Shown here piece after piece: positions 1,949 to 4,738 of a stretch of DNA of 4,738 nucleotides; the stretch's first letter is position 1; the number at the start of each line of letters is the position of its first letter. The position numbers and the translations under genes were made by a program. This DNA is from a virus (Duplodnaviria; Heunggongvirae; Uroviricota; Caudoviricetes): IMG/VR virus record IMGVR_UViG_2778261249_000005; one strand, written 5' to 3'. The notes under the pieces were generated by a model. The model was given only the letters and a program-made list of their open reading frames with translations. It made no database searches and was not told where the DNA came from.

Positions 1949-2476
1949 ATGCAGCATTTAAAAAATATTACGGTGGGTAATCCAAAAACGGTTGAACAAT
2001 ATCAATTGACAAAGGGCTTTGATGTTGTCTGGTTTTTTACAGAAGATGGTAAGAACTGGTACGAAGAACAAAAGTATTTTGCTGATGACACGATAAAAAT
2101 AGCGTACGACAAAGATAATATCATCCGCTATGTGGAAAAGGATGTGACAGCTATCAGACCGGATGGATTAAGTGTGGTTGAAGTGGCGGATATTACTGCT
2201 AACCGACGGGCGGATATTTCAGGGGGCTGGATGTTTAAGGACGGCAAAGTGATTAAACGCATTTATACGGCAGAGGAATTACAGCAGCAGGCAGAAATTC
2301 GGAAAGCCAGACTTCTTGCAGATGCTGAATCCGTGATTTTGCCGCTGGAGCGCGCGGTCAGACTGAACATGGCAACAGAGGAGGAGCGCACACGGCTGGA
2401 GGCTTGGGAACGCTACAGCGTTCTGGTCAGTCGTGTGGATCCTGCAAATCCTGAATGGCCGGAAATGCCGCAATAA
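1949..2476 (+). CDS. G: Tail fibre assembly chaperone (P2 gpG-like), 175 aa
   Basis: MQHLKNI…GNPKT…EQYQLTK…DGKNWYEE… and C-terminal [12 protein letters not shown](E/D)EER…LE(A/S)[23 protein letters not shown] match recalled P2 gpG. Starts 3 nt after the H stop, suggesting translational coupling. Confidence 0.93.
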
Positions 2477-2511
2477 GTTGTATGAACTCTGGTGTGAGCT
2501 TACATATCTAT

Positions 2512-2551
2512 GGCACAGAGTAAAGCCTAATCTGACAGTCCGCTCTGTGCC
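2512..2551. repeat. Inverted repeat (9-bp arms GGCACAGAG / CTCTGTGCC, 22-nt spacer) just downstream of G
   Basis: Seen directly in sequence. No U-tract follows on either strand, so it is not a canonical intrinsic terminator. It could be an RNA stem-loop or a recombination or regulatory site at the boundary of the cargo insertion. Confidence 0.4.
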
Positions 2552-2729
2552 AAAAGCGGGCGTTGATCACATGGGCTATGCTAACCCATTATAACAGTGT
2601 AACAGAGCTACCCACGATTACTCCCGGCCTCTAAAGTTTGCTACATAATAAAGAATCATTCCCTTTAATCTGATCTTAGCGGTATAGTATCTGGTGACCA
2701 GTAAGACAATCACCGACACTACAATCATG

Positions 2730-2757
2730 TTGATTTGCATTGTGTTTAGTCTAAAAT
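2730..2757 (+). promoter_or_regulatory. Candidate sigma70 promoter for the cargo cassette: -35 TTGATT (2730-2735), 16-nt spacer, -10 TAAAAT (2752-2757)
   Basis: Hexamers read by eye. Position about 50 nt upstream of the ATG at 2807 is appropriate. AT-rich DNA yields many chance hexamer matches, so confidence is low. Confidence 0.3.
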
Positions 2758-2806
2758 TGTGGTGCGAAAAGACCAATGAAAGTTATTGATAATAAGGAGG
2801 AATCAA

Positions 2807-3592
2807 ATGTCAGGAATAAGATGGTTGGATAAAAAAGATTTAATCCTTAAAGGAATAAATGAAGGCACCTACCCAGAATCAGTTTACAAGTTCAGAACTA
2901 TAGATAAAGCCTGTGATATTCTTCAAAAAAAAGAATTTTACTTTTCATCAGCGGAAAATTTTAATGATCCATTTGATTGTATGCTGGATGAGGAAAAAGA
3001 ATACTCTTTATCAGACTTTACTTGTTGGTTATATTCATATCAGAATGGATTAACCAAGAAGGCAAAGCAGAACTTAATAGATGTGTATAAAGAAAACAGC
3101 CAAGCATTTAATGATCTAGTTAAAAATATAAAAACAAAAGCCGTCAATGCCCATGGCATTTTATCGCTATCTAAAACTAATGAAAATGTTCTTTTATGGT
3201 CTCATTATGCGGAGAACCATACCGGAGTTGCTATAAAACTCAATATTGCTAAGGATCCAGAGTTCTTTATAACCCCCCAAAACATAGTATATATGAAGCA
3301 ATATATTCCATTAAATTATCTTAGAGACCCTAAAAAATCAATACTCGACACACTCTCTACGAAATCAATGGATTGGAATTATGAAGAGGAGATTAGAGTT
3401 TATAAAAGTAATATTGGAGCCTATAAGATTAAGCCAGAGGCAATAACTGATGTTTTTTTTGGTTTGAAAACGCTGGAACAGGATATTGCAAAAATCAAAA
3501 ATATATGTAGTGAAAATGGTCTAAGCCATGTGAAGTTTCATCGGGCTGAAAAAAAATATGGAGAATTTGCGCTACGTTTTAATCCTATTTGA
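2807..3592 (+). CDS. Hypothetical protein with DUF2971-like motifs, 261 aa; cargo gene 1
   Basis: Strong Shine-Dalgarno AGGAGG at 2795-2800, 6 nt before ATG 2807. The six-frame track begins at TTG 2786, which I consider less likely. The protein carries an FNDPFD motif (aa 52-57) and an LLWSHYAENHTGVAI motif (aa 129-143), which match my recollection of DUF2971 (PF11185) hallmarks (…fNDPfE… and …lMWshYAd.hkG…). Very AT-rich with a Lys/Asn/Ile-rich composition unlike the flanking phage genes. Confidence 0.75.
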   Translation: MSGIRWLDKKDLILKGINEGTYPESVYKFRTIDKACDILQKKEFYFSSAENFNDPFDCMLDEEKEYSLSDFTCWLYSYQNGLTKKAKQNLIDVYKENSQAFNDLVKNIKTKAVNAHGILSLSKTNENVLLWSHYAENHTGVAIKLNIAKDPEFFITPQNIVYMKQYIPLNYLRDPKKSILDTLSTKSMDWNYEEEIRVYKSNIGAYKIKPEAITDVFFGLKTLEQDIAKIKNICSENGLSHVKFHRAEKKYGEFALRFNPI

Positions 3593-3678
3593 CTTTTCTA
3601 TTTAGTAGTTAAATGATAGTGCATTACGGGCCAATTAAATTTAATTCTATGGTTGTGTAGACAATAAAAGGTAACTAG

Positions 3679-4164
3679 ATGAATCAAGATGAGTTAAAAA
3701 ATTTTTGTGTTGATGTGCGTGAAGCACTTGAGAAGATGACCAAAAAAGATCATTCACGGCTGTCATCCTTTAGAAATTCGAACTTTCCAGTGGGATGCTG
3801 CGGAGATACATCGAAACTGCTTGCTTATTTGCTTTATCAGCAATTCGGGATAGTCTCTGAAGTACTCGCAGGATATTACTATGAATCTGATCATAAGTCC
3901 CCCGCCAGCGGTCTTTCAAACGGTAATTCACATGCTTGGCTTGTCGTGGATGGAATGATTGTTGATTTGACTGCAGATCAGTTCAACGACCGGGGATATA
4001 ACAATCTTCCCGTCATGATTACATCAGACACTAGGTTTCATGACCTCTTTGCCAATCGTAATGCCTCGTTTCAACCTTCTCAAGGTAATGAAATTATTCT
4101 ACCTGATATTCTAAAAATGACAGCATCACATGTGCAGCAAAGGCTTAAAGAGCGAGGTTGGTAA
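3679..4164 (+). CDS. Hypothetical protein with transglutaminase-like / papain-fold Cys-His-Asp signature (putative cysteine peptidase or amidase), 161 aa; cargo gene 2
   Basis: AAGG at 3668-3671 precedes ATG 3679, which is immediately preceded by an in-frame TAG. Motif GCCGDTSKLLAYLLYQQFGIVSEVLAGYYY (Cys40/41, codons 3796-3801), then SHAWLVVDGMIVDLTADQF (His85 at 3931-3933; Asp100 at 3976-3978), resembles the transglutaminase-like core (G-C-x-x-fA … HAW-x-E-V … D-P-T). Same strand and composition as cargo gene 1, 86 nt downstream, so likely co-transcribed. Confidence 0.75.
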   Translation: MNQDELKNFCVDVREALEKMTKKDHSRLSSFRNSNFPVGCCGDTSKLLAYLLYQQFGIVSEVLAGYYYESDHKSPASGLSNGNSHAWLVVDGMIVDLTADQFNDRGYNNLPVMITSDTRFHDLFANRNASFQPSQGNEIILPDILKMTASHVQQRLKERGW

Positions 4165-4484
4165 TGCGGGTGCAGCAGAATCTAAAGCTGATACTTAAAA
4201 TTATATAGGAAGAGCATAAACTTATCCTAAATCTGGCTGTAATAGATCCTTTCATATATCGGCCAGATTAATATGAAGTAATCCAAATTAGTGTCTGAAA
4301 ATATAATCAGCTCCATAACAATAGATTTATCGCTTAAAAATAACGTCAACATGAGGGTAGAAAACATCCCTAAAGATAAGTCTGGTCTAACCTTTGCTCC
4401 TCGCTCAAAGCAGACTGTCAGAATTGATAGCGTTTGGGCTATGTAAATTGTCAGTCGGAAAATGAGTGAGTACAAATCAGGACA

Positions 4485-4511
4485 GGCGGGCGAATTGCCC
4501 GCCTTTTCTTT
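4485..4511 (+). terminator. Rho-independent terminator: stem GGCGGGC (4485-4491) / GCCCGCC (4497-4503), loop GAATT, followed by TTTTCTTT
   Basis: Perfect 7-bp GC-rich stem plus U-tract on the + strand, seen directly. Lies about 320 nt downstream of cargo gene 2 and about 100 nt upstream of FI, so it plausibly insulates cargo transcription from the late sheath operon. Confidence 0.6.
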
Positions 4512-4607
4512 ATCTGTTGTTTCATCCACTGACCAGTCAGGTCAAATAGCGTCTCATGCTCTGCACAACAGAAAATAGTTGCACCCATTAACCACGGAGT
4601 TAAACGG

Positions 4608-4738
4608 ATGAGTGACTATCATCACGGCGTGCAGGTTCTGGAAATTAACGACGGCACCCGTGTCATTTCCACCGTATCCACTGCCATTGTCGGCATGGTC
4701 TGCACGGCCAGCGATGCGGATGCGGAAACCTTCCCCCT
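4608..4738 (+). CDS. FI: 5' end of tail sheath protein (P2 gpFI-like), truncated at window end
   Basis: [43 protein letters not shown] closely matches the recalled N-terminus of P2 gpFI. GGAG at 4596-4599 precedes ATG 4608. Confidence 0.92.

Follow-up and report, generated by a model that had tools for sequence, protein, structure and literature searches.

DUF2971 genes and the Z/fun hotspot of P2-like phages

DarTG is a phage-defence toxin-antitoxin system whose toxin, DarT, is an ADP-ribosyltransferase (ART); toxins of this kind depend on a partner. Proteins containing DUF2971 have been predicted to be ARTs of the HYE clade, akin to DarT and AbiGi; about 18% of them are predicted to be secreted effectors, and a DUF2971 operon variant with a papain-fold toxin domain has been noted (PMC12522546). 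One member, Aristaios, is a single DUF2971 gene with an abortive infection (Abi) phenotype that was validated in Lactococcus (PMC11381338), and it blocks phage transcription and protein production (PMC11381338, PMC13064643, PMC12967558). The PDC systems are candidates embedded in BREX, DISARM, and type I restriction-modification (RM) loci (10.1101/2024.01.29.577857). Defence cargo is also carried at the Z/fun locus of P2, a recognised variable hotspot (PMC9519451), and the corresponding slot between genes G and FI has been documented as variable (preprint 10.1101/2024.10.15.618418). Here we describe the G-FI slot of a P2-like Escherichia coli prophage, contained in a 4,738-nt stretch of DNA from IMG/VR virus record IMGVR_UViG_2778261249_000005 (the whole stretch is hereinafter referred to as the window). 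The slot (2477-4607) holds a DUF2971 gene (gene 1) and a gene for a small papain/transglutaminase-like protein (gene 2).

With modest confidence, we read this slot as an inverted-repeat-bounded cassette of ~1.9 kb with two functionally independent cargo genes, gene 1 encoding an Aristaios-like ART and gene 2 a free-standing Cys-His-Asp enzyme. The features on which this reading depends were as follows.

2531-2557: left inverted-repeat arm bounding the cargo, found by repeat search (27 nt, 78% complementary to 4396-4422)
2567-4389 (+): variable AT-rich cargo of ~1.8 kb, comprising leader, gene 1, spacer, gene 2, and trailer
2807-3592 (+): gene 1, 261 amino acids (aa), DUF2971, PADLOC PDC-S31 type; ATG 2807 is the most likely start
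3593-3678 (+): intergenic spacer of 86 nt with no terminator-like site
3679-4164 (+): gene 2, 161 aa, stand-alone papain/transglutaminase-like Cys-His-Asp protein
4165-4389: non-coding cassette trailer, 75-79% conserved in the Serratia and Klebsiella copies described below
4396-4422: right inverted-repeat arm, inside the right flank common to Wphi and P2-EC67

The window covers late-region DNA of a P2-like E. coli prophage, in the order H, G, slot, and start of FI. An earlier note on this DNA had placed two co-oriented AT-rich genes with non-structural products in the P2 Z/fun hotspot, and each of these points held. The locus is that of the published hotspot (PMC9519451; preprint 10.1101/2024.10.15.618418), and the GC content of the cargo was 0.352 (0.319 in gene 1 and 0.409 in gene 2) against ~0.46-0.56 around it (G, 0.458; flanks, 0.46-0.48; FI, 0.565). 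The products were non-structural and unrelated to the cargo of other sequenced P2-like phages. The cargo was absent from the phage collection, in which no record covered more than 15% of the slot and only the slot flanks matched; tblastn of the gene 1 or gene 2 protein against 50,697 phage records likewise found no P2-like phage. Complete P2-like E. coli prophages with identical DNA were found among bacterial genomes, where the RefSeq order was tail fiber, assembly protein, DUF2971 protein, transglutaminase-like protein, and sheath.

Gene 1 encodes a predicted ADP-ribosyltransferase of a catalogued family

Gene 1 passed the gathering threshold of Pfam DUF2971 (PF11185; 25.0 bits against 22, E 4.8e-5) and matched phrog_1762. 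All five PADLOC PDC-S31 models matched it, the best being PDLC04990 (E 2e-46, 156.9 bits, residues 23-259 of 261). The suggestion that the locus might be undescribed was therefore not supported as regards gene 1, which matches PDC-S31 and shares its Pfam family with the validated Aristaios; gene 1 adds a member to an already catalogued candidate defence family. No RM or BREX genes lay near gene 1 in the P2 G-FI slot, unlike the BREX, DISARM, and type I RM context in which PDC systems were discovered. Literature searches returned nothing on PDC-S31, nor on WP_ accessions or PHROG ids.

An AlphaFold model of gene 1, built with 59 homologues (pLDDT 93.2), adopted an ART fold nearest to Tpt1/KptA and DarT, which are nucleic-acid-modifying ARTs, and had large helical inserts (residues ~62-114) and an additional C-terminal beta subdomain. 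No sequence-level PDB match was obtained when the gene 1 sequence was compared with solved structures. N53-D54-P55 (in the motif NDPFD) and W131-S132-H133-Y134 (WSHY) were invariant in 59 sequences, as were K186, W190, E193, E195, and R197. Among these residues, Y134 and E193-x-E195 correspond to the motif II Tyr and motif III ExE of ARTs as described in PMC12522546. Because the ART fold carries an intact Y / ExE catalytic signature, gene 1 is probably an effector enzyme, as judged from the model, and not the sensor that the earlier note had paired with a peptidase-like effector. Substitutions between the cassette copies peaked at the third codon position (46/32/59 and 42/32/69).

Gene 2 encodes a minimal Cys-His-Asp protein

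Gene 2 scored below the Pfam thresholds for both Transglut_core (13.5 bits against 23) and YunG (24.0 bits against 27), and had no match among PADLOC v2 and NCBIfam models. Its predicted structure was a papain-like fold with a triad of Cys at a helix N-terminus, His, and Asp. In 21 homologues, C40, C41, H85, W87, D96, and D100 were invariant; the Cys dyad C40/C41 lay at the N-terminus of helix 41-56 and His85 and Asp96 on successive strands, which is the canonical geometry. An extra helix carrying F9-C10-R14 was also invariant. The domain assignments proposed earlier for the two genes were thus borne out, and the motifs singled out at that time (NDPFD and WSHY; C40/C41 and H85) were those found invariant in 59 and 21 homologues, respectively.

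The structural neighbours of gene 2 included SseI, PMT, SpvD, and Cif, effector deamidases and proteases that target host proteins. No sequence-level relative was found among solved structures in the PDB, and the BFVD viral fold library returned only uncharacterised proteins with poor TM-scores. A full-database profile search gave 1699 representative clusters, nearly all of stand-alone proteins of ~150 aa. Candidate activities of gene 2, a putative cytoplasmic enzyme, are those of a deamidase, a protease, and an acyl-transferase. Neither gene showed an obvious signal peptide at its N-terminus when read by eye. Between the cassette copies, the excess of third-codon substitutions in gene 2 was slight (21/23/28 and 20/20/31). 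Both ORFs (open reading frames) were intact in the window, and the catalytic residues of both genes were kept across orthologues of 70-85% identity. No literature linking the term 'transglutaminase-like' to anti-phage activity was found.

Paired copies belong to one cassette lineage

The whole cargo was present at an identity of at least 99% in 12 of 5426 complete E. coli genomes, and megablast of these genomes found none with only one of the two genes. Outside E. coli, the pair was detected in Serratia quinivorans (71% and 76% aa identity for gene 1 and gene 2), where it adjoined mntH/mntR, at the margin of an element that carries genes for an integrase and gpA, and in a lambdoid prophage of Klebsiella variicola (74% and 77%). 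Metagenome contigs carried it at 94% nucleotide identity. The block 2526-4414, which runs from arm to arm, had ~81% nucleotide identity to the Serratia and Klebsiella loci, both of which were outside any G-FI slot (window 2526-4414 and 2538-4407, aligned with L002 4848-6740 and L012 4723-6594). The left arm was retained at both copies, and homology stopped at 4407-4414, within the right arm. Because the DNA homology runs from one inverted-repeat arm to the other, all paired copies are assigned to one cassette lineage that moves as a block.

The imperfect arms are those annotated as 'left/right inverted repeats' in the P2-EC67 Z-region record AJ512685. In the Klebsiella copy, right-arm-like and left-arm-like sequences were found side by side just upstream of the cargo. 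Together with the sharing of the whole arm-to-arm block, this suggests that the arms may act as recombination sites for cargo exchange. A resemblance of the arms to Vibrio attC (VCR) through a common TGACAGTCC was attributed to chance, the alignment scores being equalled in 28 of 300 and 100 of 300 shuffles.

Each gene also occurs without the other

Gene 1 homologues were found alone at several distances. At 60% identity, in Providencia vermicola, the homologue was a lone gene at a prophage end, and at 44%, on a Pantoea plasmid, it stood alone amid transfer genes of an integrative and conjugative element (ICE). Gene 2 was not nearby in Aliarcobacter (34%) or in six viral contigs.

Homologues of gene 2 in non-paired settings, with an overall identity range of 45-71%, were located on diverse mobile elements. 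The closest, on a Klebsiella aerogenes ICE (71%), adjoined a DRT9 reverse transcriptase (E 5.9e-215). Others came after McrBC (69%), abutted McrBC (59%), were convergent with a bSEFIR gene on an Erwinia ICE (53%), or lay 50 bp after ApeA/PDC-S58 in Providencia (48%). At 44-48% identity, gene 2 homologues formed opposite-strand morons by the small-terminase genes of lambdoid prophages, or lay between their tail and lysis genes, and the family was also present on Pseudomonas megaplasmids. At gene-2-only loci, homology to the window started at 3636-3659, within the spacer. Immediate neighbours matched PADLOC defence or candidate models in 5 of ~12 close-clade contexts, and McrBC flanked gene 2 in two more, with no neighbour family common between contexts. 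That gene 2 repeatedly turns up next to defence genes of unrelated kinds, in prophages as well as in ICEs and integrons, may mark it as conflict-related cargo.

In the K. aerogenes locus, window positions 4154-4279 (the end of gene 2 and the first 115 nt of the trailer) were 74% identical to the 3' end of DRT9 and the downstream sequence (L123 8294-8421). This ICE comparison gives the appearance of an exact insertion or deletion of DRT9 at the junction of gene 2 with the common trailer.

Among more distant relatives of gene 2, a DUF2971 gene within 5 kb was found at 0 of 73 loci in species-representative genomes and at 0 of 25 viral loci (the viral set numbered 26, of which the 26th was the cassette itself and was left out). 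The neighbours of 57 distant relatives showed no enriched Pfam family and only scattered PADLOC matches. The sole distant co-location was in Vibrio sp. HDW18 (NZ_CP049914.1 572000-586000; L129), on a 600-kb replicon with a VCR-type integron array. Three cassettes of this array were relevant, two carrying different DUF2971 genes and the third a member of the gene 2 family; every one consisted of a single gene flanked by attC-like (VCR) repeats of ~127 nt. GNAT/DUF1778 toxin-antitoxin genes and other small cassettes were present in the same array. Repeated, independent co-occurrence of the two families was accordingly not observed; every pair found belonged to a single cassette lineage, with copies in E. 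coli, Serratia, Klebsiella, and metagenomes. The earlier proposal that the pair forms one system loses ground here, since co-occurrence was confined to one clade.

Natural frameshift alleles were found for both genes. In two metagenome records (L090, L133), gene 1 was broken by the same slippage indels, a -1 in the A8 run at 2925-2932 and a -2 in the TA repeat at 3288-3289, with gene 2 intact. Gene 1 was also found with altered C-termini, at lengths of 258 aa and 265 aa (P0261, 11 contigs; P0262, 7 contigs), both diverging at the translation of the second A8 run (3549-3556); four complete genomes (H34-H37) had a 1-nt indel that went with the 258-aa allele. Gene 2 was cut to 92 aa, before His85, on 50 E. 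coli contigs (P0254; e.g., ENT2040194.1), the frame being lost at the C5 run 3899-3903. Such frameshifts at simple repeats may reflect genuine on/off variation or, in some cases, errors of sequencing. Since the GC content of the genes differs (0.319 and 0.409), each gene is found alone, and alleles exist with gene 1 broken and gene 2 intact and with gene 2 truncated, the two genes are probably independent.

Interpretation of the cassette

According to the reading that we favour, one juxtaposition event would have joined gene 1 and gene 2, and the cassette would since have spread as a block. A lysogen would make the gene 1 ART in a restrained state, from which infection by another phage would release it. 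The enzyme would then modify either a nucleic acid or part of the gene-expression machinery by NAD+-dependent ADP-ribosylation, as DarT and Tpt1 act on nucleic acids, and the modification would stop phage gene expression and abort the infection; the trigger, the target, and the phenotype in this scheme are those that we infer. Gene 2 would move alone from one defence hotspot to another, in prophages, ICEs, and integrons alike. Most likely, its action does not depend on gene 1 and is that of a second defence-type or conflict-type cargo gene.

Several points weigh against this reading. Anti-phage activity is attributed to both genes from family membership and genomic context only; PDC-S31 is still a candidate system, and Aristaios, a lactococcal protein of 316 aa versus 261 aa for gene 1, is likened to it by description. 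The pair has been kept through ~18% nucleotide divergence and at three or more different insertion sites, its genes separated by a short spacer that lacks a terminator, and a functional operon would show the same pattern. Across the wider gene 2 family (1699 clusters), there is no consistent neighbourhood and there are few defence neighbours, and its distant members may have housekeeping roles. Moreover, unless gene 2 takes part, the reading offers no account of how a potentially toxic ART would be restrained in the lysogen.

A two-component system, in which the DUF2971 ART would be the toxic effector and gene 2 its restrainer, an activating protease or deamidase, or a sensor of a phage protein, is the strongest of the alternatives, and we regard it as rather unlikely. 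It would account for the persistence of the block through ~18% nucleotide divergence and for the restraint of the ART. The genes are co-oriented across an 86-nt spacer with no terminator between them, and the pair has diverged in parallel in E. coli, Serratia (71%/76%), and Klebsiella (74%/77%), besides occurring in the metagenome contigs at 94% nucleotide identity. The need of ART toxins such as DarT for a partner, established for DarTG, would suit such an arrangement. So would the DUF2971 operon variant with a papain-fold toxin domain (PMC12522546). The paired copies, however, share the same inverted repeats, indicating one event and not repeated association, and each gene stands alone at comparable or closer distances. 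The neighbours of gene 2 elsewhere are unrelated defence genes, Aristaios works as a single gene, and in Vibrio the two families occupy separate integron cassettes. The 50 contigs in which gene 2 is cut off before His85 tend also to argue against an essential antitoxin, the more so if gene 1 on them is intact.

Gene 2 might instead be a counter-defence or host-manipulation factor, acting for example by protein cleavage or deamidation, with defence neighbours that result from the use of common hotspots. This we consider improbable. Its occurrence on prophages, ICEs, Pseudomonas megaplasmids, and an integron array would be compatible with such a role, as would the action of the structural neighbours SseI, PMT, SpvD, and Cif on host proteins, the lack of a PADLOC model for gene 2, and the neighbourhoods of its distant relatives, which are not enriched in defence genes. 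Gene 2 is, on the other hand, found in the P2 slot and in lambdoid late regions as an AT-rich or separately oriented moron and not in an early operon, which would fit expression in the lysogen; in the close clade, PADLOC-matching neighbours accompany it in 5 of ~12 contexts and McrBC in two more. Similarity of gene 2 to known anti-defence proteins, checked through Pfam, PHROGs, and fold searches only, was not found.

The least probable explanation, one to which we give very little credence, is that the cargo has no role in phage-phage conflict and serves lysogenic conversion or virulence, or is an inert hitch-hiker. In its favour, ~18% of DUF2971 proteins are predicted secreted effectors (PMC12522546), a P2-EC67 Z-region ORF is annotated 'putative lysogenic conversion protein', and frameshift alleles of both genes exist in nature. 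Against it, conflict functions are indicated by the match of gene 1 to PDC-S31 and the precedent of Aristaios, as well as by the known defence hotspot and the defence genes that adjoin gene 2 homologues; no obvious signal peptide was seen by eye at either N-terminus, and the ORFs are intact, with catalytic residues kept in 70-85% identical orthologues and a third-codon substitution excess in gene 1 that is slight in gene 2.

The favoured reading, that of two independent cargo genes, leaves room for a further proposal about gene 2, which we put forward tentatively, as possible and not as probable. Gene 2 may found an unrecognised family of minimal, stand-alone papain-like Cys-His-Asp enzymes (~150-170 aa), each of which would serve a mobile element as a self-sufficient module for immunity or conflict. 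As single cassettes, they would pass among prophage morons, cargo slots of ICEs, and integrons, and would lodge time and again beside a DUF2971 ART, DRT9, ApeA, bSEFIR, or McrBC. If so, gene 2 could be a new single-gene anti-phage defence operating by deamidation or proteolysis, or a portable potentiator of the adjoining defence.

Expression signals, non-coding parts, and phage backbone

The remaining features of the window are listed below.

80-1945: tail fibre H, Pfam Phage_tail_fib and three Phage_fiber_2 repeats
1949-2476 (+): gene G, tail-fibre assembly, left backbone neighbour (Pfam Caudo_TAP, E 1.5e-33)
2477-2566: conserved left flank of the slot, near-identical in P2-EC67 and Wphi up to ~2566, with complete divergence beyond
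2683-2688 (+): TATAGT box, a candidate -10-like element
2730-2757 (+): promoter-like site TTGATT-16-TAAAAT, a weak candidate from a pattern scan (9/12 matches)
2794-2800 (+): ribosome-binding site AAGGAGG of gene 1, read from the sequence, 6 nt ahead of ATG 2807
4484-4504 (+): intrinsic terminator of the backbone, a 9-pair stem (7 GC) around a 3-nt loop, followed by TTTTCTTT; P2-EC67 and Wphi have the identical site
4608-4738 (+): start of FI (tail sheath), right backbone neighbour, ATG 4608; aligns to Wphi FI

RefSeq labelled G as 'tail fiber assembly protein' in the identical prophages and FI as 'phage tail sheath protein'. The conserved right backbone, shared with P2-EC67 and Wphi by alignment, extended over 4390-4607. 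Because this flank is conserved in P2-like phages whatever their cargo, the terminator at 4484-4504 belongs to the backbone and not to the moron.

The earlier note had seen a classic moron architecture in the slot, of which one part stood. The base composition was deviant; the terminator was present but was that of the backbone, and the promoter was represented only by weak consensus matches, the best of which was unconserved. Promoter-like sites in the region numbered 12, versus 7.6 +/- 3.2 in shuffles, and the -10 of the 2730-2757 candidate was not conserved in the Serratia or Klebsiella copies. The TATAGT box was kept in the three cassette copies (TATAGT / TGTAGT / TATAAT), with no good -35, and may be a -10-like element. 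In a three-way alignment, conservation of the spacer was 0.73/0.60, versus 0.83-0.85 in the genes.

Further coding or structured elements in the slot were considered and rejected. A third gene in the leader, a minus-strand hydrophobic ORF of 52 aa (2618-2776), had no codon-position bias, and its frame was broken in Klebsiella. ORF 4291-4446 (+) showed an even substitution pattern across codon positions (16/16/15) and ran into the conserved flank, and ORF 4227-4529 (-) extended into the conserved backbone flank. PHROG matches were obtained for these two small ORFs, which overlap the terminator (phrog_23566, E 8e-40, and phrog_11095, E 5e-24); both ORFs are probably annotation artefacts propagated in phage databases. 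An Rfam scan of the slot at E<=1, the 225-nt trailer included, gave no match, and a structured non-coding RNA in the 240-nt leader was discarded, its folding being no better than that of shuffles (z +1.3).

Within the tail-fibre gene H, GC content dropped from 0.555 (80-900) to 0.436 (901-1945), and G was also low at 0.458. The drop fits a swapped-in receptor-binding module formed by the H C-terminus and G beside the cargo slot, as in preprint 10.1101/2024.10.15.618418. Tandem copies of ~132 nt (44 aa, Phage_fiber_2 repeats) were found in H at 598-955 by blastn self-matches and three Pfam stretches. In E. coli GPEC1042 and related chicken isolates, the IS21-family element ISEc12 (istA/istB) lay between the cargo and FI (L001 20249-22551). 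The GPEC1042-type prophage is probably defective, with the cargo intact, as ISEc12 splits the sheath operon from the upstream region. In K. variicola, a gene located on the same strand ~840 bp upstream of the cassette (L012/L013 2758-4158) encodes a protein of 466 aa that matched neither Pfam nor PADLOC models; this protein has the same length as the Providencia ApeA that precedes a gene 2 homologue, and BLASTP gave no similarity between the two.

Significance

The hotspot, the inverted repeats, and the DUF2971 candidate family are already known. The cargo appears in no sequenced phage record, and gene 2 lies outside the PADLOC v2 models. DUF2971 spans thousands of species, and its only tested member is the lactococcal Abi gene; if the cassette protects, DUF2971 ARTs would gain a first representative in E. 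coli, and with it a tractable model. Gene 2 is a very small Cys-His-Asp enzyme that recurs beside DRT9, ApeA, SEFIR, and McrBC on different mobile elements, and its function, once shown, would add a new enzymatic activity to the phage-host conflict repertoire. Further, the locus documents Z/fun cargo travelling as an inverted-repeat-bounded block, with the same block in non-P2 contexts.

Comparison with known systems

Gene 1 resembles PDC-S31 in having the same domain, a similar size, and a near full-length model match. It differs in setting, as the PDC-S31 candidates were defined in BREX, DISARM, or type I RM loci, whereas gene 1 occupies the hotspot of a P2-like prophage, with another cargo gene downstream. 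With Aristaios, from the Lactococcus plasmid pUCCL641_199, gene 1 shares PF11185, the predicted ART fold, and carriage on a mobile element. Aristaios works as a single gene, has 316 aa, and comes from a Gram-positive host, whereas gene 1 has 261 aa; the two are likened by family and fold, by description. Aristaios itself has an Abi-like phenotype, and the likeness of gene 1 to it lies in domain and fold.

The catalytic layout of gene 1, with a conserved Tyr and Glu, is also that of DarT and Tpt1/KptA, from which gene 1 differs by a sequence identity of only 8-14%, by its helical inserts, and by its extra C-terminal beta subdomain. Unlike DarTG, the cassette has no macrodomain partner (DarG), and the second protein instead has a papain-like fold. 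Gene 2 has the same Cys-His-Asp layout as the papain/transglutaminase-like enzymes, which include Atu2299/DUF2026, the SseI and PMT deamidases, protein-glutaminase, LapG, TglA, and Pfam YunG, and is distinguished from them by its minimal length of 161 aa, its CC dyad, its F9-C10-R14 helix, and its sub-threshold Pfam scores. Other G-FI cargo, namely P2-EC67 ORF1, Wphi orf44, and the three PD systems of Vassallo et al. (2022), encodes proteins unrelated to gene 1 and gene 2, but it occupies the same slot, with the same flanks, inverted repeats, and terminator.

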